From the NCBI GenBank assembly GCA_002733135.1, contig NVUJ01000009.1, forward strand, positions 7,518-71,517: a stretch of 64,000 nt of DNA. Reading direction: 5' to 3'. The stretch comes from Cycloclasticus sp. (GTDB lineage Bacteria; Pseudomonadota; Gammaproteobacteria; Methylococcales; Cycloclasticaceae). Positions 1-60,907 of the stretch are shown piece by piece; position 1 is the first letter of the stretch, and every line of letters begins with the position of its first letter. The notes below the pieces were generated by a model. That model worked only from the letters and a program-made list of their open reading frames with translations, made no database searches and was not told where the DNA came from. The position numbers were made by a program, and so were the translations under genes.

Positions 1-46
1 CCTCTCTGACCAAATAATCAGTTACCGCTTTTTCACAACAATTCAT
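1..46 (-). CDS. 5' end of a small cassette ORF (MNCCEKAVTDYLVRE...), runs off window
   Basis: ATG at 46 preceded by AAGGA SD; same position relative to the attC-like site as neighbouring cassette genes. Confidence 0.55.
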   Translation of the reverse strand, partial: MNCCEKAVTDYLVRE

Positions 47-77
47 ATTTAATTCCTTCAATAGTTTCAGTATCGCA

Positions 78-138
78 ACATAACAAGCTCTATCAAGCCG
101 ACTCGCTGCGCTCTCGGCTTATTTCGTAAGGGTTATGT
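78..138 (+). repeat. attC-like recombination site 1 (61 bp)
   Basis: R'' ACATAAC, spacer AAGCTC, L'' TAT[C]AAGC, central stem CGACTCGCTGCGCTCTCG, L' GCTTATT, spacer TCGTAAGG, R' GTTATGT; strongly resembles aadA-type attC layout. Confidence 0.85.
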
Positions 139-139
139 G

Positions 140-325
140 CTATTCCCAGTCCTTGAGCATCTTTCCTTTTTTACCTTTCTTTTGTCGCTGCTCAAGCAGT
201 GGTGCGCTAGGTTTACGGCTGGCTAACTTGTAATAAATGGTTTCAAAGCAAAAATCTTTTACGCTTGCTGTACCCCTATCGCTGTAGTCTATATGCCCTT
301 TAGTACCTACGTTAACTAAGCTCAT
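140..325 (-). CDS. Cassette ORF, 61 aa, N-terminal EF-Tu G1-like motif VNVGTKGHID, basic C-terminus
   Basis: Fills interval between attC 1 and 2; ATG lies in R'' box of site 2, GGAG SD in its L'' box. Confidence 0.65.
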   Translation of the reverse strand: MSLVNVGTKGHIDYSDRGTASVKDFCFETIYYKLASRKPSAPLLEQRQKKGKKGKMLKDWE

Positions 326-424
326 AACAAATCTCTCCGGTTGACAAATAACCGTTTTGGCATTTGTCGTTAAAAATTAGTTTATCGCAGCGGTTATTTG
401 CCGCTGAGTTCTAAAGGGTTATGC
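322..424 (+). repeat. attC-like recombination site 2 (103 bp)
   Basis: R'' TCATAAC, spacer AAATC, L'' TCT[C]CGGT, stem CAAATAACCG/CGGTTATTTG, L' GCTGAGT, spacer TCTAAAGG, R' GTTATGC. Confidence 0.8.
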
Positions 425-658
425 TTCAGTATCAACATCAAAGCATAGCTTCATAAATCGACTTGCCGCATCGTTACCTATTTCTCGCGCTTCAAATGAG
501 GTTAGCGGTAAATCGCTCTTATTGTCTTTAATAGCGTCATAACACATCATTGCTATATTGCAATGCCAAGAATGGGCGTAACCACCTTGCTCAGCTGCAC
601 CATCATCAATCATTGCCTGCTTTAATACTGCAAAGGCTTCTTGTACTTTATCTGTCAT
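419..658 (-). CDS. Cassette ORF, 79 aa phage-type hypothetical protein (YAHSWHCNIAM motif)
   Basis: ATG at 658 with AGGAG SD (preferred over 688); TAA stop inside R' box of site 2. Confidence 0.8.
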   Translation of the reverse strand: MTDKVQEAFAVLKQAMIDDGAAEQGGYAHSWHCNIAMMCYDAIKDNKSDLPLTSFEAREIGNDAASRFMKLCFDVDTEA

Positions 659-679
659 TTCAAAACTCCTACCAAAATG

Positions 680-746
680 GCATAACAAGTAAATTAAGTC
701 TGACCGCGCAAAGAGCCGCGCGTCAGCTTATTAAAAATCGTTATGT
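680..746 (+). repeat. attC-like recombination site 3 (67 bp)
   Basis: R'' GCATAAC, spacer AAGTA, AAT[T]AAG[T]CTGAC pairs with GTCAGCTTATT, spacer AAAAATC, R' GTTATGT. Confidence 0.85.
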
Positions 747-923
747 TGCCAGTACGCCAACTTCGCCCTTGTTATCACCGTCTAGATATTTATCAACAAG
801 CCGCGTTTCCTCAGCTTCGCTTGGAACAATAGTGCCATTTCTATATTTTTCAGTGTCACTAAAATCAAACTCAAACTGAAGAAGTATTTTTGATATGGGT
901 TTGCCCAACTCTATAATTTTCAT
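741..923 (-). CDS. Cassette ORF, 60 aa acidic hypothetical protein
   Basis: GAGGA SD upstream; TAA stop inside R' of site 3. Confidence 0.7.
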   Translation of the reverse strand: MKIIELGKPISKILLQFEFDFSDTEKYRNGTIVPSEAEETRLVDKYLDGDNKGEVGVLAT

Positions 924-945
924 TCTCTTTCCTCGTTTAATTCAC

Positions 946-1008
946 ACATAACATATCTTTCAAGTACGACGCACATAAAACGTGCGCGTCTTAACTTTTG
1001 CGTTATTC
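946..1008 (+). repeat. attC-like recombination site 4 (63 bp)
   Basis: R'' ACATAAC, spacer ATATC, TTT[C]AAG[T]ACG[A]CGCAC pairs with GTGCGCGTCTTAAC, spacer TTTTGC, R' GTTATTC. Confidence 0.85.
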
Positions 1009-1239
1009 GTCATACACCCTTCTGCTAATCGTAATCATGTTCTTTATAAATTCGATAAATGCGAAAAGTGCAAATCCAAAAACCAGACTCATCCATCCCC
1101 ACAAAAAACCTATTAACATTTCTACAGCAATTACGACTAGCCAAAATAAAATTACAACTATCGAGCTTGCCAGCCAATTTTTACTAAAGCGAATAACATC
1201 TCGCTCAACCTGATTCGTCTCTTCACTCGCTTTGCTCAT
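1003..1239 (-). CDS. Cassette ORF, 78 aa membrane protein (about 2 TM helices)
   Basis: GAGGA SD; long hydrophobic stretch; TAA stop inside R' of site 4. Confidence 0.75.
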   Translation of the reverse strand: MSKASEETNQVERDVIRFSKNWLASSIVVILFWLVVIAVEMLIGFLWGWMSLVFGFALFAFIEFIKNMITISRRVYDE

Positions 1240-1252
1240 TTCGTTCCTCTCA

Positions 1253-1274
1253 TGTTAGCTCCAAAAGGTTAGGT
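1253..1274 (+). repeat. Right half of an attC-like site (left arm deleted)
   Basis: L' TGTTAGC, 8-nt spacer TCCAAAAG, R' GTTAGGT containing the stop codon of ORF 1269-1496; no R''/L'' arm upstream. Confidence 0.55.
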
Positions 1275-1496
1275 TTCAAAACGTATCCGCGCTATTCGTG
1301 CCTTAAAATAACTACCGTGTTTATTAACCTCGCAATTTTTACAGCTACAAGTTTCGCTTTTTACTGAATAAGCCAAAACATGAAATCTTGCGCCATCACA
1401 AACAATATGTTTTTCCGTACCATCGGGGTTAAACTCGGGTAGGTAATTATGCAAATCTTGGATTGTTGTTAAAGCTTTATGTTGTATTACACCCAT
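1269..1496 (-). CDS. Cassette ORF, 75 aa Cys/His-containing hypothetical protein
   Basis: AAGGTG SD; HIVC...FHV...CSCKNCE possible metal site; stop inside GTTAGGT box. Confidence 0.7.
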   Translation of the reverse strand: MGVIQHKALTTIQDLHNYLPEFNPDGTEKHIVCDGARFHVLAYSVKSETCSCKNCEVNKHGSYFKARIARIRFET

Positions 1497-1516
1497 AAAT
1501 CACCTTTGAAATAAAA

Positions 1517-1572
1517 ATATAACCATTCGGAGCTACGCATACAGACAGACTTTGTAGTTGCTCACATTACCC
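1517..1572 (+). repeat. Degenerate attC-like site at the portal junction
   Basis: ATATAAC-CATTC R''+spacer; CTAC/GTAG stem; ATT instead of GTT at the R' position, coinciding with the portal stop codon. Confidence 0.35.
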
Positions 1573-2928
1573 GCTCACACTTGTCATACTTTCACCCTTT
1601 GGGCTATTGCCTGGTGTAATGCTGATTTTAGGCGGTCCTGTTTCTCCCTCCCCGTCTACAGTCGGGTAAGGGTCGTCGCTGTTTTCCTGGTCTTTTCTTG
1701 CAGCGAGTACGGCGCTGGCATCTAATCCAGCGGCTTTCCAAACCAGTTTAGGCGGCACACCAATGGCTTGGTGCTTCAACGCTAGGTCGGCTCGTTGGTT
1801 TGGCGTGTCTGTTCTGCGTTCTGCAAATTTTACGGTAAATTCTGCATCTTCTGGGTTGATGCCTTGCAGTAGTAGATCCAGCTTGAAGCCGTGCTCGTAG
1901 GCTTCGGCTTGGGTGTCTTGCATGGCGTCTATTTCTTCGTAGTAGTCTTTTTTCAGGTCTTCGAGTATGTCTCGGTTTATATCGCCCACGTATCCGAACA
2001 GGCCTTTTGGGGCGGGGCTTCCTGCAAAGAAGGTGTCTAGCAAATACGATACATCGGCTATTTGGTCCAGGTTGGCATCGCCCTGTATGGGGGTTACGCC
2101 GCCTTTTTTATTGGCAAAGTAGTCAGTGGTGATGTCTTGTTGGTCATTTTCTACGCTATCCTTGTAATCTTGCAGCTCATCGGCTGTTGCGCCCTCTAGC
2201 ACGTGGGATGTTCTTAGCGGTGCGCGTTGTCTTCTGCGGATGACGAGGTCTTCTTCTGTCATGCGCAGTTGTTGCCATGTGCTGCGTGTTGCGTCTAAGT
2301 AGGGGCGGCCTAGCGACCCTTCGTCGTCGTAATTATCGGGTGTTAGGCGTACTAGGCTTAGTTGCCATTTGGCAAAGCTGGCGATTTCTTTGCCTGCTGT
2401 TATGTCTATTTGCGAGTAGGCTTTGTTTACATCGTCAAACGTGCCGTTTTCGCCTACATTTGGGCGTATTGTTTCGGTGGGCATACGGATAGCTTGAACA
2501 ATGCGGTTTTGATTGTTGAGCACCCATTGAAGGGGTAGGTTGCCTTCCATCACCAGCCCACGAGCATCGGATTCTAGTTTTTGGATTTTATTGAGCTTTA
2601 GCCGCTTAACAAATTGCTTAAAAGCGCTGACAATGCGGTCATCTTCTACCTGCATTTCTAGCATGAGGCCGCCTTTTACGGCTGATCGCGCCATGCGGGT
2701 ATGTATTTTTTTGACGCGGCCATCGACGGTATCCATGCGGCGTACGTCGAGTATGCGTTGATGTATTTCTGGGTCTACCCACATCATGCGGTATAGGTGG
2801 CGTATTTGATTCTCGGGCGTGGTGCGGTTGCCTTGCTCGGTTGTGGTCTTGTCTTTTTGGCCTGTTAGGTCGTCGGCTGTGCTGGCAACCGGTATGGGCT
2901 TGCGTCTAAAAATTCTGAGTAAATCCAT
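1567..2928 (-). CDS. Phage portal protein
   Basis: About 450 aa immediately after terL; ATG at 2928 overlaps terL stop (TAATG); GRPYLD motif typical of portals. Confidence 0.75.
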   Translation of the reverse strand: MDLLRIFRRKPIPVASTADDLTGQKDKTTTEQGNRTTPENQIRHLYRMMWVDPEIHQRILDVRRMDTVDGRVKKIHTRMARSAVKGGLMLEMQVEDDRIVSAFKQFVKRLKLNKIQKLESDARGLVMEGNLPLQWVLNNQNRIVQAIRMPTETIRPNVGENGTFDDVNKAYSQIDITAGKEIASFAKWQLSLVRLTPDNYDDEGSLGRPYLDATRSTWQQLRMTEEDLVIRRRQRAPLRTSHVLEGATADELQDYKDSVENDQQDITTDYFANKKGGVTPIQGDANLDQIADVSYLLDTFFAGSPAPKGLFGYVGDINRDILEDLKKDYYEEIDAMQDTQAEAYEHGFKLDLLLQGINPEDAEFTVKFAERRTDTPNQRADLALKHQAIGVPPKLVWKAAGLDASAVLAARKDQENSDDPYPTVDGEGETGPPKISITPGNSPKGESMTSVSG

Positions 2929-4496
2929 TAAGCCGCTCCCATTAGTTGCTGGCGTGTTTTTGTGTTGGTTAGTACGGTGGTTTGTACGGCGCATGCGCCG
3001 CGTGTTGCTAGTGCCCATACGGCTGCCATGGCGGCATCGAACAAATCATCACCAATTTTTGTGTTGGCTTGTTTGTAGCTGGCGTAGGTTGTTTTGGTGG
3101 CAACCGGTACGATGTTGGCCAGTTGTCCGATGAAGGTTCTAAAATCTATTATTTCTGGGTCGGTCATGTTTTGATCGTCAAAATACGGGATGGCCGCTTG
3201 GCGGTTGTGAAATAGCGATTTGATTGATTGCGCCATCGAGTGTTTGGTCATGCCTTCAAAGCGAATGGGTGAAAACGGCCACTCTGGCCATGTGCTGGCG
3301 GTGCTGTCTCCATCGCCTATTGCGCGGCGGTCTATGTGGGTTAGCCCTTTGTCGTATAGGTCGTCATTGAGCGAGGTGAGCATGCCTACGCCGTACGCAT
3401 CGCCCATTGCATAATCTGGGTTGAAGTATTCCCATAATCCCAGCAAGTCCTTTTTCACCATGTTGTCGTCTGCACCTGGGGTCCATGTTCGTACGTAGGG
3501 GAAGGTGGTGAAGTTGCCAATTTGCTCGGTTACAACCAGCGCGTGTTTTGAACTGGTTGGGTTTTCGCCGTGGCCACCTGCATCGTAACCGAAGCTGATG
3601 AGACCGCGTTTTTTGTAATGTTCACCGGGTAATGGGCTGGCTATTTGCAAGCTGGCCTCTAAACCCACCTGCATGGATCGCCTGATGTATTTTTCCCATA
3701 TTAAATTTCGTGAGCTGATATTTTTGCACAGCATTTGGCGTATGTATTCGTCTGGCGCCAGCTGTTTTCGCATTTGCATCATGAAGTTTTCGTCGATGAT
3801 GCCCATTTCCATACCCAGGTAGCAGTCGATAGTAGGTAGCACGTGATAGCCTTCGCTGCTTATCATGTCGCTTAGGGTGTCGGCGCCTTTGAACACGCCG
3901 GTTACGCGTATTTCAGGGTTATTTTTGCTATCTAGGTCTGCGCCTAACCGCCTGTTTGAACCCATCATCATTAGGAAGTTAGAGTACAAGCGGTCACGTG
4001 GCATGTCGTCAACTTCTTCCAGTGATGCGGCAGTTAAATCACCCCCATCCATTTGCGACATAATGCCATAGGCTCTCGTCTTGGAGCGGTTGGCGAATTC
4101 GTAGTATGTATCAGCCAGTTGTTTGCGGCCAGATTTTACCGCTATCCATGCATCAAGTATGGGAGAGCGCCTAATCGCATCAAGATGGTAACCTAAATTC
4201 ACCAATGCTTGAGCTTCACGCGGAGCAACTATTCCCAGCTCTTGATCGGGCTGGGTGGCGTTTTGCTTGTTCTGGTAAAGCTCTTTGATTGCGGTTTTTC
4301 CAGTTCGTCGGCAGGAGAAGTCAATCGTATTCGGGTTCTGGTCCATCTCAATGCATTTCAAAATTTGCATTGGGTCTAGCTCAACGTTGTGGATGTGTTT
4401 GTGCCATAGCGAATGATCGTTTTTATACCGCATTACCTCAATTTCTGCACGATTGCGTAGTTTTATGCGTTTGGCGCTGCTGATACGTTCAGCCAT
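2928..4496 (-). CDS. Terminase large subunit
   Basis: Walker A CRRTGKT, Walker B SLEEVDD, RNase H-like GYDAG and C-terminal DDLFDA acidic residues. Confidence 0.85.
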   Translation of the reverse strand: MAERISSAKRIKLRNRAEIEVMRYKNDHSLWHKHIHNVELDPMQILKCIEMDQNPNTIDFSCRRTGKTAIKELYQNKQNATQPDQELGIVAPREAQALVNLGYHLDAIRRSPILDAWIAVKSGRKQLADTYYEFANRSKTRAYGIMSQMDGGDLTAASLEEVDDMPRDRLYSNFLMMMGSNRRLGADLDSKNNPEIRVTGVFKGADTLSDMISSEGYHVLPTIDCYLGMEMGIIDENFMMQMRKQLAPDEYIRQMLCKNISSRNLIWEKYIRRSMQVGLEASLQIASPLPGEHYKKRGLISFGYDAGGHGENPTSSKHALVVTEQIGNFTTFPYVRTWTPGADDNMVKKDLLGLWEYFNPDYAMGDAYGVGMLTSLNDDLYDKGLTHIDRRAIGDGDSTASTWPEWPFSPIRFEGMTKHSMAQSIKSLFHNRQAAIPYFDDQNMTDPEIIDFRTFIGQLANIVPVATKTTYASYKQANTKIGDDLFDAAMAAVWALATRGACAVQTTVLTNTKTRQQLMGAA

Positions 4497-6244: not shown

Positions 6245-7258
6245 TCATTTATTCAACTCCCTCATAAGCTGGGTCACCGGTGTGTTTATTTTTCCAAGCG
6301 GGTTACCTTTTGCGCTCTCTGCCCTCAGTCTTCTTAACGCAGTGTGATTGTATATATCAACCGTGTCGGTTTTTACGTGGCCCAACAAAGCCTTCATGTG
6401 CAATATGTTTACATTTGCTTCAGCCAGCTCAGTGCCATACAAATGCCTAAGTGAATGTGCGTGGACAACTTTAGGATCTATACCCGCCCGTTTGCCATAT
6501 TTCTTCAGCATGTCGTCAATTGTCTTGGTTGATAATCGTCGGGCTTCGCCATAATAATTATACGAAGGTACGTTGTAGTTCCTTGTGGAAACAAACAACA
6601 CTTTGTCACCATCATCTAGGTCTCTAACCACCGGGGCTAATTCAGGATGCCCCATATATGCGCGAATTAATAATCTAACTTCATCTGGGGCGGGGACCAT
6701 CCGTTGCTTCTTCCCTTTCTCTTCGACCTTGATAATCAACACCTCGCGGTTTAGTTCATCTTCTGTCCATATCAAACTTGATTCATTCAGGTTTGTAACA
6801 CCACTCATCCTAAACCCACAACCGATAAAAGTAGCAATGATAGCCGCATCTCTTACCCCAATAAGTGTGGTTAAGTCTGGTTGCTGCAACAATCTCTCGG
6901 CATCCCTAAGTTGCATAATGTTTGGGAAATGAGATGGAACCTTTGGCGCAACGACGTGTTTAGCTGGATTATCCAAACGTATATTATTTCTCTGGGCCCA
7001 GGCGAAAAAACCTTTTACACATGAGATGACAGGCTTTCTGCCAGCGGGTCTTAAGCCCTGCATTATTAAATGCATACCAGTAAACTCATCAAGGCTAGCC
7101 TGGTCAGCCGTTTCGTGGTTTTGTTTTTTTGTTACCAGAAATTTTTTCAGCCGAGCAAGGTAGCCCTGGTATTTATGCACTGTATTGTCCGACCTGCCTA
7201 AATTACCACCTAAAAATTCGGCATACCTAGCTATCGCATTATCAAAATCATCGATCAT
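6245..7258 (-). CDS. XerC/D-like tyrosine recombinase (core-binding + catalytic domains)
   Basis: RDAAI..GFR, KGKKQR, HSLRH, LLGH, DIY catalytic set; N-terminal SAM-like domain. Confidence 0.92.
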   Translation of the reverse strand: MIDDFDNAIARYAEFLGGNLGRSDNTVHKYQGYLARLKKFLVTKKQNHETADQASLDEFTGMHLIMQGLRPAGRKPVISCVKGFFAWAQRNNIRLDNPAKHVVAPKVPSHFPNIMQLRDAERLLQQPDLTTLIGVRDAAIIATFIGCGFRMSGVTNLNESSLIWTEDELNREVLIIKVEEKGKKQRMVPAPDEVRLLIRAYMGHPELAPVVRDLDDGDKVLFVSTRNYNVPSYNYYGEARRLSTKTIDDMLKKYGKRAGIDPKVVHAHSLRHLYGTELAEANVNILHMKALLGHVKTDTVDIYNHTALRRLRAESAKGNPLGKINTPVTQLMRELNK

Positions 7259-8871: not shown

Positions 8872-9058
8872 GTGATTCCTCAAGGTTCCTTTCCCATGTA
8901 TCAACCAAATCCAGCCGAATACCACGGCTTTTAAGCTCACGCGCCATACAGCTTCCCGCCATTTCAGCTATATCTTTACGCCGCTGAGAAGCATCATCTT
9001 TTGAAAAATAGGACTCGGTTCGAATCCTAACTAGGGACTCGGTTCGATTCCCACTCAC
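8861..9058 (-). CDS. Hypothetical phage protein, 65 aa
   Basis: Start overlaps recombinase stop (GTGA); co-oriented. Confidence 0.5.
   Translation of the reverse strand: MSGNRTESLVRIRTESYFSKDDASQRRKDIAEMAGSCMARELKSRGIRLDLVDTWERNLEESHED
9011..9051 (+). repeat. Tandem 17-bp repeat GGACTCGGTTCGA(A/T)TCC, 24-bp period
   Basis: Copies at 9011-9027 and 9035-9051. Confidence 0.7.
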
Positions 9059-9687
9059 GACACACCCTCAAGCGACCGCTCAATATCTTCCCGATCAGGC
9101 AACGTATAAACCGTCGTAGACACCACACTGCTATGCCCAAGCACAGCACACACATGCCCACGCGGATCAGCCGCCTCGCTGCTCTTCATTAACCGCTTAG
9201 CCAACGTATGCCGCCACCAATGGGGCGATGCCACCACCCTAAGCCCAGCCACACGGCTCCAATGCTGCATACGCTGTTGAAAACTACGAACAGCCAGCCC
9301 GCCGTGATGCCTACTCAAAATAAAAGGAGAATCCGGTGCAGTAGGTGCGCCCATCTCCTTGCGAATCCTCAGCAACCGCTTAAGCGCCAGCGTAGCCGTT
9401 TTATTCAAATACACTTTATAGCCGCGCTCACCCTTCGCAATCTCATCGCGCAGTACCAAATAACCCGACGTACGCGCCAACAAAGCATCATCCAGCGTTA
9501 ACAAAGCCAACGACCCAACCCTAATGCCCGTATGCCTAAGTAAAAGCATCCAAGCATGGTCACGCCTAGCCAGCACACTGCCAAACGACTTAACCGACTT
9601 AAACAACACACTCTCTTCCTTCTCACTTAAATAACGCTCAAACACCTGGCGTTGTCCGTATTTCTTCACTTTTTTATTCGTGTTCAT
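9055..9687 (-). CDS. Tyrosine recombinase, catalytic domain only (FimB/FimE-sized, 210 aa)
   Basis: RDH..TGIR, AKG, HWWRH, LGH, TTVY all present; no N-terminal core-binding domain. Confidence 0.88.
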   Translation of the reverse strand: MNTNKKVKKYGQRQVFERYLSEKEESVLFKSVKSFGSVLARRDHAWMLLLRHTGIRVGSLALLTLDDALLARTSGYLVLRDEIAKGERGYKVYLNKTATLALKRLLRIRKEMGAPTAPDSPFILSRHHGGLAVRSFQQRMQHWSRVAGLRVVASPHWWRHTLAKRLMKSSEAADPRGHVCAVLGHSSVVSTTVYTLPDREDIERSLEGVS

Positions 9688-9705
9688 AAAAACTCCTGGT
9701 TCCGA

Positions 9706-10206
9706 TTATTGCGGTGTTAATTTGCCCGCAGCTTGCTCGTGCTTCATAAAGCAAATCCAGTGGGTGTTTGCGCGCTTACCTGATATGTGTCCGAACAATG
9801 GCTTCCTCTCGGTTAATGCCAGTATTTCGCCTGTTTTAATTTGTGTTTCGTTCCATTTGAAAATTAAAATTCCGTTGTTTTCCAAAACCCTGAAACACTC
9901 GGAAAAGCCTTTTCTTAAATCATTTTTCCAATTGTTTCCTAATGTTCCATATTTCTTGCCCATCCAGCTGTTTTTTCCAGCTACATTTAAGTGTGGTGGG
10001 TCAAACACGACTAATTTAAACGATCCATCATCAAACTGCATATTTGTATAGTCAGTTAATTCGTCGGGGTTAATATGCAACTCTCTACCATCACATAGAA
10101 TGTGGCTTTCTTTGCGGATGTCTCCGAAAAACACATGAGGGTTTTTACTGTCAAACCAAAACATTTTGCTACCACAGCACGGGTCTAAAACTGTTTGTTG
10201 CATCAT
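9706..10206 (-). CDS. Phage class I SAM-dependent methyltransferase
   Basis: LDPCCGS SAM-binding motif and FDPPH catalytic motif. Confidence 0.85.
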   Translation of the reverse strand: MMQQTVLDPCCGSKMFWFDSKNPHVFFGDIRKESHILCDGRELHINPDELTDYTNMQFDDGSFKLVVFDPPHLNVAGKNSWMGKKYGTLGNNWKNDLRKGFSECFRVLENNGILIFKWNETQIKTGEILALTERKPLFGHISGKRANTHWICFMKHEQAAGKLTPQ

Positions 10207-14791: not shown

Positions 14792-14807
14792 CCGGCCCTC
14801 GGTACCA
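14792..14807 (+). other. Prophage att site: duplicated tRNA 3' end (probably tRNA-Leu)
   Basis: CCGGCCCTCGGTACCA = T-stem 3' strand + acceptor strand + CCA with no tRNA 5' part; IHF-like TAGCTATTTGATT at 14761-14773; followed by terminator. Confidence 0.75.
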
Positions 14808-14814
14808 AACACTT

Positions 14815-17702: not shown

Positions 17703-17779
17703 TGGGGTGGATGAAGGGACTCGAACCCTCGACAACCTGAGTCACAGTCAGGGGCTCTACCAACTGAGCTACACCCACC
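17703..17779 (-). tRNA. tRNA-His(GTG)
   Basis: Cloverleaf, CCTGA-CTGTGAC-TCAGG anticodon arm, G-1, CCA end. Confidence 0.95.
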
Positions 17780-17802
17780 ATAGTCGTTTGTGTCGTACAG
17801 AG

Positions 17803-17879
17803 TGGCGCGCTTGGCAGGACTCGAACCTGCTACCCTCGGCTTAGAAGGCCGATGCTCTATCCAGATGAGCTACAAGCGC
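17803..17879 (-). tRNA. tRNA-Arg(TCT)
   Basis: TCGGC-CTTCTAA-GCCGA anticodon arm, GGTTCGAGTCC, CCA. Confidence 0.95.
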
Positions 17880-17919
17880 TTCATCAAAAAGCACACACGT
17901 ATCAAACATTAATTAAAAG

Positions 17920-17996
17920 TGGTCGGGGTGGAGAGATTCGAACTCCCGACCCACTGCTCCCAAAGCAGTTGCGCTACCAGGCTGCGCTACACCCCG
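17920..17996 (-). tRNA. tRNA-Pro(TGG)
   Basis: ACTGC-TTTGGGA-GCAGT anticodon arm, CCA. Confidence 0.95.
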
Positions 17997-59666: not shown

Positions 59667-59810
59667 TAGGGGGTCTCTATTCATTAGGATTTTTGTTTGA
59701 GTTTTAGGCGGGTAGTTTTTGAGAACCGCAGTGCATAGTGATGCATGAGGCTCGCAAAAAATCATCCAACGCCGAAACCGGAGAAAAAGACAATTAATAG
59801 AGATACCCTC
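59667..59810. mobile_element. ~144-bp palindromic element (RPE/MITE-like)
   Basis: Imperfect terminal IRs GGGTCTCTATTCATT / AATTAATAGAGATACCC; core ACCGCAG-TGCAT-AGTG-ATGCA-TGAGG. Confidence 0.6.
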
Positions 59811-60907
59811 AAATTCCACTTTTTAGACTGGCCTCTATAAATTGATCCAATGCTCCATCGAGCACCGCTTGTGTATTGCCGGTTTCAACACCGGTTCGTA
59901 AATCTTTGATACGTGATTGATCGAGCACATATGAACGGATTTGGCTGCCCCAGCCAATATCCGACTTATTATCTTCTTGTACTTGCTGATCTGCCATTTT
60001 TTTCTGTACTTCCAGCTCATATAACTTAGCTTTAAGTTGCTTCATCGCTGTCGCTCTATTTTTATGTTGCGAACGATCATTTTGACACTGCACCACGGTA
60101 TTGGTTGGTATGTGTGTGATACGCACAGCAGATTCAGTTTTGTTCACGTGCTGCCCTCCGGCACCACTGGCACGGTATACATCAGTTCTTAAATCGGCTG
60201 GATTAATGTCTATTTCAATATCATCGTTAATCTCTGGTGAAACAAACACCGCGGCAAACGAGGTATGACGACGATTACCCGAATCGAACGGTGATTTACG
60301 CACTAAACGGTGTACGCCAATTTCGGTTCTTAACCAACCGTACACATAGTCGCCCTGAATAGAAACCGTCGCACTTTTAATACCAGCCACATCACCTGCA
60401 GACACTTCGATTAGCTCCGTTTTAAAACCATGTTGTTCAGCCCAACGTAAATACATACGTAAAATCATCTCAGCCCAGTCTTGTGCCTCTGTTCCGCCTG
60501 AGCCTGATTGAATATCAAGAAACGCGCTATTGGCATCCATCTCGCCAGAAAACATCCTTTGAAACTCTAATCGACCTACTTTTTTCTCATAAGTACTAAG
60601 GTCAGCTTCGACAGAATCAATTGTATCGTCATCACTATCTTCGACAGCCATTTCCAACAAGTCAGCAGAATCTTCCAAACCACTGGTCAACTCAGTAATT
60701 GTATTAACGACTAATTCAAGCTGGCCGCGCTCTTTCCCAAGTGCTTGTGCTCGTGCAGGGTCATTCCACACATCAGGGTCTTCTAGCTCGCGTAAAACCT
60801 CTGTTAACTGTTCGTATTTCGTTTCAAAGTCAAAGGTACCCCCTAAGCGAATGGGTACGCTCTTTTAAATCAGCAATTTTATTGGTGATGGGGTTTAACT
60901 CACGCAT
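59809..60907 (-). CDS. prfB: Peptide chain release factor 2 with programmed +1 frameshift
   Basis: ATG 60907; AGGGGG-TAC-CTT-TGA-C at 60844-60829; SPF and GGQ motifs. Confidence 0.97.

Follow-up and report, generated by a model that had tools for sequence, protein, structure and literature searches.

A prophage of Cycloclasticus sp. carries, between its portal gene and its head-morphogenesis gene, an array of integron cassettes whose genes all run antisense to their own attC sites. The stretch of DNA analysed here, called the window, is 64,000 nucleotides long (positions 7518-71517 of contig C22 of the host genome G000; contig coordinate = window coordinate + 7517). The array fills the whole gap between the two head genes of this tRNA-integrated prophage and comprises, when the flanking contig sequence is included, seven attC sites that bound six cassettes. 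Seven attC sites lie within 3.3 kb, and the sole match above the TIGR02249 cut-off is found on another contig, so that by its sequence the array is classed as a CALIN and not as a complete integron. We consider it likely that this array is a reversed, integrase-less satellite of the host integron, which would be shuffled by the host IntI and expressed from the late operon of the phage. The features to which the text refers are the following, in window coordinates unless C22 is named.

1567-2931, minus strand: portal gene (PF07230 on its cluster), whose stop codon bounds the array upstream
1269-1496, minus strand: ORF1, 75 aa, without an intact attC in front and without Pfam, PHROG or GenBank phage match
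1191-1274, plus strand: attC Z, degenerate, weak fold
1003-1239, minus strand: cassette gene 2, 78 aa, hydrophobic, from the ORF list, without Pfam or PHROG name
946-1008, plus strand (canonical top strand): attC A, whose recombinogenic-type strand is the coding (minus) strand
741-923, minus strand: cassette gene 3, 60 aa, of a small unnamed family
680-746, plus strand: attC B, from hairpin layout and polarity score
419-658, minus strand: cassette gene 4, 79 aa, phage-type, with ordinary phage genes as homologues
322-424, plus strand: attC C, long type, also in G061, from layout and polarity score
140-325, minus strand: cassette gene 5, 61 aa, from the ORF list, without Pfam or PHROG name
78-138, plus strand: attC D, from hairpin layout and polarity score
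1-46 (5' end; whole gene at C22 7366-7563), minus strand: cassette gene 6, 65 aa, crossing the window edge
C22 7281-7371, plus-strand layout: attC E, beyond the window edge
C22 5600-7223, minus strand: two-gene cassette, C5 cytosine methyltransferase (PF00145, PADLOC) and 244-aa probable restriction nuclease
C22 5524-5582, plus-strand layout: terminal attC F, conserved in G061 and L202, at the place of the host-type attI in L011 and L208
C22 4402-5511: head-morphogenesis gene (phrog_1657), downstream border of the array
6245-7258, minus strand: rec1, Xer-like tyrosine recombinase, family-wide, not IntI
9055-9687, minus strand: rec2, short tyrosine recombinase, family-wide, not IntI
9693-9722, plus strand: possible eroded attI-like site in front of rec2 (9-10/20, ungapped)
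14792-14808: prophage att repeat of 17 nt, tRNA-Leu 3' end, right end of the prophage in the window

The early and packaging genes of the prophage occupy the first 14.8 kb of the window. The partner copy of the att repeat was found on contig C11 together with the integrase, tail and capsid genes, so the prophage is apparently complete across the two contigs. Elsewhere in the window, Rfam places three tRNA genes at 17706-17996 on the minus strand, and a peptide release factor 2-like ORF at 59809-60771 is without its N-terminus, presumably because of the usual programmed frameshift. An 8.8-kb contig of the same assembly (C12; 34% G+C, repetitive ORFs) is unlike the rest and possibly foreign.

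The initial annotation had described four attC-like hairpins, A to D, and these are confirmed as real attC sites: all four are present where it had placed them and the three R''/R' pairs that it quoted are correct. A fifth site in the window, Z, had been overlooked. The small ORFs reported between the sites (61, 79, 60, 78 and 75 aa) are indeed there, all on the minus strand, and the array adjoins the portal stop (1567) and runs past the window edge as proposed, attC E and F being found there. AAC...GTT core triplets are present at both ends in 7/7 sites, while the strict RYYYAAC consensus is relaxed, likewise in the host's own attC sites. The R box at the start of a cassette agrees with the one at its end in 40 of 42 positions, a value equalled by 6 of 720 permutations. 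In all sites the L boxes pair and the spacers stay unpaired, and the extrahelical base is a G in Z, A, C, D and E, an A in B and a C in F, always on the coding strand. Fold z-scores reach about -3 to -4 for B, E and F and only -1.4 to -2.1 for A, C and D; the fold of Z is marginal, and its inner part matches an attC-flanked contig in sequencing run X3.

Several sites thus fold weakly, and the array is richer in A+T (38% G+C) than its flanks (about 50%), which would fit hairpins that serve as terminators or in RNA processing, or palindromes arisen by chance in a moron cluster rich in A+T. That explanation is nevertheless highly improbable. The detector returned five sites in the 3.6-kb interval, whereas 200 dinucleotide shuffles of it gave none in 186 cases and one in 14, and the same model detects the attC sites of host integrons. 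Moreover, a terminator scan overlapped one site only, on the non-coding strand, and an Rfam search of the window returned tRNAs and nothing in the array.

The R''-L''...L'-R' layout reads on the plus strand and all array genes lie on the minus strand, which makes the genes antisense to their attC sites. In a canonical attC the strand cut by IntI is the bottom one, with the extrahelical bases on the arm opposite the cleaved AAC, according to the available text of Nivina et al. 2016 (PMC5027507). Bottom-strand geometry was scored higher on the coding strand in all 15 phage sites considered (six here and nine from related phages), with an extrahelical G on that strand in 11 of them; attC Z behaves likewise. 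On the contrary, the host's own arrays (contigs C16 and C23), used as a control, are canonical, and sites from the host genus (n = 45) were divided into 33 canonical, three reversed and nine unclear. Two of these three reversed sites belong to a Mu-like prophage of genome G011 (G011:C1:1660105-1660431, locus L238), which is unrelated to the present phage and carries them in its early region. A tally by longest ORF gave 20 canonical and four reversed calls in host arrays against three and 24 in phage arrays; the loci are related and partly redundant and thus not independent, and the three canonical phage calls, kept in the count, resemble shadow ORFs. Both the polarity score and the ORF calls are heuristics of our own.

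Since the extrahelical base lies on the 3' arm of the coding strand, each cassette is organized as attC first, then gene, and the cut point TAA|C falls at or just after the stop of the upstream gene. In a complete integron the genes would be transcribed from Pc and lie on the top strand of their attC, and an intI with the IntI-specific insertion would be present in cis; here every gene is antisense and no such intI accompanies the array. A promoter scan remained at chance level (nine found, 10.9 expected). Reversed polarity also leads to the prediction that crossovers occur at TAA|C and that the attC body stays with the downstream gene.

Cassette content was compared at the post-portal spot in related prophages. 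Arrays were found in G061, L011, L202, L203 and L208, a clade defined by a portal identity of at least 76% (76-87%), and these share almost no cassette. Locus L206 matches G061 and stops short of its next site. Capture and shuffling on a phage, as the initial annotation had it, is therefore supported, the cassettes of relatives being almost wholly different and the junctions lying at the IntI cut point. Site F is the last attC before the morphogenesis gene in this phage and in G061 and L202, and the gene ahead of it is different in all three; G061 and L202 have 54 of 56 bases in common after the TAA|C of F and 12 of 40 before the TAA. In the same way, L011 and L203 share their first gene, with 303 of 306 identical bases as far as AA|C and only 21 of 58 beyond it. 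The methylase-nuclease unit was recovered in contigs of three studies. The G|TT of F is the exact starting point of the unit in runs X1 and X3, where site E is part of it; judged by eye, the sequence next to it in X3 is similar to a host-genus attC. The contigs of runs X1, X3 and X6 covered neither the morphogenesis gene nor the portal end, and the single joint listed for run contigs lies inside the methylase-nuclease genes and not at an attC. As far as sequence can speak to them, none of the outcomes named in the initial annotation as contrary to its reading, such as an identical gene order after the portal in all relatives, was found.

Both border genes were located in 160 loci of the phage family, and in 88 of these the gap does not exceed 60 bp; of the 72 longer gaps, only that of L011 holds an array, and one other has a single weak match. 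Vibrio prophages are among the empty-gap loci, and Vibrio hosts commonly carry integrons, so a host IntI is not sufficient for an array to form. A site model, R1, gave no match in 80 bacterial-genome loci of the phage family, and in 87 mostly viral sources it returned, besides its training sites, only site E and two isolated ones; this model is tuned to the short attC family, and long types would escape it. The portal gene was not found in those searched among 60 relatives of the host, and the cassettes of this array were not found in 21 host-genus genomes, which gave only two attC-sized matches.

The host genus, on the other hand, provides both the enzyme and the site types. The search of the genome for intI and attI that had been suggested yielded a partial IntI, truncated by the end of its contig, that scores above the TIGR02249 cut-off, and IntI is present in 18 of 22 genus genomes. 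Of 21 other genomes of the genus, 17 gave attC-like sites with a model built from ten phage sites, and the phage sites belong to the host-genus attC family. With the integrons of G001 and G007 as the reference for host attI, the array end agrees at 19 of 20 positions in L011 and at 16 of 20 in L208; at the end of the present array an attI is not recognisable (10-11/20). An exact scan for the attI motif found 12 stretches in ten viral contigs. In nine of the ten the motif lies at the stop or end of a gene, mostly behind a reversed attC, and the one match inside a gene is probably due to chance. By our estimate a few matches would arise by chance in a collection of that size, and the context of the matches is accordingly taken as evidence, not their count. 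No intI, rec1 or rec2 was found in the 3-kb flanks of the nine attI-motif loci tested. Copies of a host-type attI were also observed away from intI in the host chromosome (G000:C14:133261 and G000:C3:195), the former at the head of a short canonical array.

A gene is shared between phage and host integron. Cassette 3 of L202 and the first cassette at the attI of an integron of G001 (contig C72) are 99.3% identical over 288 nt, and the gene lies antisense at this attI. The attC body of the common gene differs between phage and host, which indicates that the body and the downstream gene are not always transferred together. The same host integron contains one more reversed cassette, which is methylase-like (G001:C72:4050-4700, locus L346).

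The exchange of an attC body between L202 and G001 would also fit recombination within repeats, and the array could be a decaying relic of a single capture, altered since then by homologous or illegitimate recombination between attC repeats and not by IntI; such routes were proposed by Qi et al. (PMC9892861). The end of the present array is without attI, Z is degenerate, and truncated sites are present in L208 and G061, all of which agree with decay. The contig end of G061, where the portal tail is duplicated, appears to join sequence from two strains, for which reason the cassette order of G061 near the portal is not relied on. However, junctions lie at or a few bases from AA|C in several comparisons, the R boxes within a cassette match 7/7 in most units of the window and the relatives, as expected after passage through circles, and a gene with 99% identity is located at the attI of a host integron. 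We therefore regard the relic as unlikely.

Another view is that one of the phage's own tyrosine recombinases, rec2 or rec1, recombines the sites, which would make the system a self-contained phage analogue of the integron. Two Xer-like recombinases are found in this phage family in addition to the integrase, and the sequence of rec2 shows the usual catalytic residues of tyrosine recombinases. An attI-like site directly before rec2 is clear in L202 and G061 and weak here; it reproduces the attI-intI geometry of locus L245 and keeps this alternative alive. This second docking point (window 9693-9722; L202 17-61; L019 9165-9455) gives rec2 its likely ribosome site; it holds one reversed cassette in G061 and is eroded here behind a methylase-like gene (9706-10206). 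Against a phage recombinase, rec1 and rec2 are devoid of the IntI insertion motif and score 50.6 and 24.5 on TIGR02249, for a cut-off of 265. Site clusters occur at only two of 75 rec2 loci, L245 and L252, with a single site in G061, and rec1 is common in relatives whose gap is empty. Furthermore, no tyrosine recombinase gene (PF00589) was found inside the Mu-like prophage that bears reversed sites, an identical attI motif precedes unrelated genes in other phages, and the sites of the array are of the host's attC family. We hold a phage recombinase to be quite unlikely, and of the two drivers offered in the initial annotation, a phage recombinase or a host IntI, the latter is favoured. As markers of arrays, rec1 and rec2 were rejected, both being family-wide and present without arrays.

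Reversed arrays exist in other phages of the collection. L245 (14740-18631), of the same broad family, has six reversed attC sites with a short attI-like end, and just downstream, at the attI end, it carries its own co-oriented intI; from its sequence this locus is interpreted as a complete reversed integron. Further reversed arrays were found in L252 (15170-17556) and L326 (1811-2800).

The cargo of the array is mostly small phage-type genes plus a methylase and probable nuclease pair. The six small ORFs are without a name in Pfam and PHROGs, and one weak partial match is all that PADLOC gave. The family of gene 3 counts ten representatives at E<=0.001, itself included. Homologues of gene 4 were found in 11 viral loci, of which only one, L326, is a clear reversed array, and gene 4 corresponds to a hypothetical gene in three GenBank phages. 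The likely ribosome-binding site and ATG of gene 2 are held by attC Z and those of gene 5 by attC C, so both genes appear to start inside their attC. The last cassette is predicted to be a restriction-modification pair. Its methyltransferase is well supported (PF00145, E 2e-94; PADLOC MTase_II, E 2e-111). The 244-aa candidate nuclease has no Pfam, PHROG, NCBIfam or PADLOC match; its nearest named atlas clusters are restriction enzymes (0.85-0.86), and methylase-like ORFs lie beside its homologues in two of four loci examined. These homologues, found in four of 400 genomes of the class, were not accompanied by an attC array. A GroES-like gene, recognized by eye, was noted in the phage array of L208 (1301-1588), and the gene before it has a similar N-terminus.

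Taken as a satellite of the host integron, the array could have been built as follows. A host-type attI would have come to lie just before the head-morphogenesis gene, facing against transcription, an arrangement that L011 and L208 still show. In the present phage, as in G061 and L202, the fixed attC F would hold the place of the attI and serve as acceptor by attC x attC recombination. The integrase of the host integron would act in trans to build and shuffle the array. Inserted cassettes would be read by the late transcript only when their genes are antisense to attC, and reversed cassettes would therefore accumulate, a proposal in which selection is inferred. Placed in a host integron, these cassettes would point towards Pc and stay silent unless they carry a promoter of their own. 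The methylase and probable nuclease pair would likely exclude competing phages in the lysogen. Set against a role of the host IntI are the missing attI at the end of this array, the swapped attC on the gene of L202 and G001, the weak folds of Z, A, C and D, and the attI-like site before rec2 in L202 and G061.

That attC arrays are normally chromosomal or borne by plasmids and transposons, as the initial annotation stated, has to be corrected, as phage-borne arrays were already published. Qi et al. 2023 (PMC9892861) described 17 phage CALINs and found IntI1 active on sites of phages PH101 and TJE1. As in the present case, their arrays are attC clusters without intI and with methyltransferase cargo, and the sites described here are built like attC1/2 of PH101, which IntI1 recombined. 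In this Pseudoalteromonas phage the strands that recombine best with IntI1 (Table S3 of the same study) are the coding strands. TJE1 appears canonical, so that reversal is not universal in phages. The main text of that study is silent on antisense genes, and its figures and Dryad annotation may show the strand. Beyond those CALINs, the cassettes of the present clade occupy one fixed place in the late operon, where the set changes from relative to relative; moreover, relatives carry a host-type attI, and one gene also occurs in a host integron.

The array resembles sedentary chromosomal integrons in its attC anatomy, in the R''/R' complementarity within a cassette and in the cut in the AAC triplet, and its attC and attI families are those of the sedentary integrons of the host genus. 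It differs from them by the lack of intI in cis, by genes that are all antisense to attC, by an expression predicted from a phage operon instead of Pc, and by a small phage-type cargo of which two genes start inside attC. SALINs and attG sites were also considered: in the part of the preprint of Loot et al. available (bioRxiv 10.1101/2022.09.11.507474), IntI acting in trans off its platform can seed isolated cassettes and small clusters. Unlike what that part describes, cassettes in relatives have as their docking point a recognisable host attI or an attC of constant position, and the orientation is uniformly reversed. The comparison in print also took in the accessible part of Darracq et al. 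(10.1101/2024.07.02.601686). No description of the reversed layout was found by a literature search conducted largely outside subscription papers. Phage CALINs are thus already known, and the new part is the reversed polarity tied to a documented host integron and the host-type attI, neither of which figured in the initial annotation.

A broader proposal, which we advance tentatively and consider somewhat doubtful, is that phages hold a mirror-image pool of cassettes and are a cradle of integron cassettes, IntI trading them with the host integron as in a single two-way bank. A host-type attC would land before ordinary phage genes, sometimes providing a ribosome site and a start codon, and thereby give rise to reversed cassettes. 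The host IntI would then carry these cassettes back and forth between the host integron, as a silent store, and attI sites borne by phages, and orientation would decide whether host or phage expresses the gene.

Integrons are viewed as bacterial platforms and lately as stores of anti-phage genes, and the origin of their cassettes is a long-standing open question. If phages dock reversed cassettes via the host IntI, the same machinery diversifies the phage too, and functionally unassigned antisense cassettes in bacterial integrons may be parked phage genes. The present clade makes the origin of cassettes testable, given that members of one gene family are plain phage genes in some loci and cassettes in others; also in hand are a near-identical gene in a phage and at a host attI, together with a host IntI, a host attI and a complete prophage.
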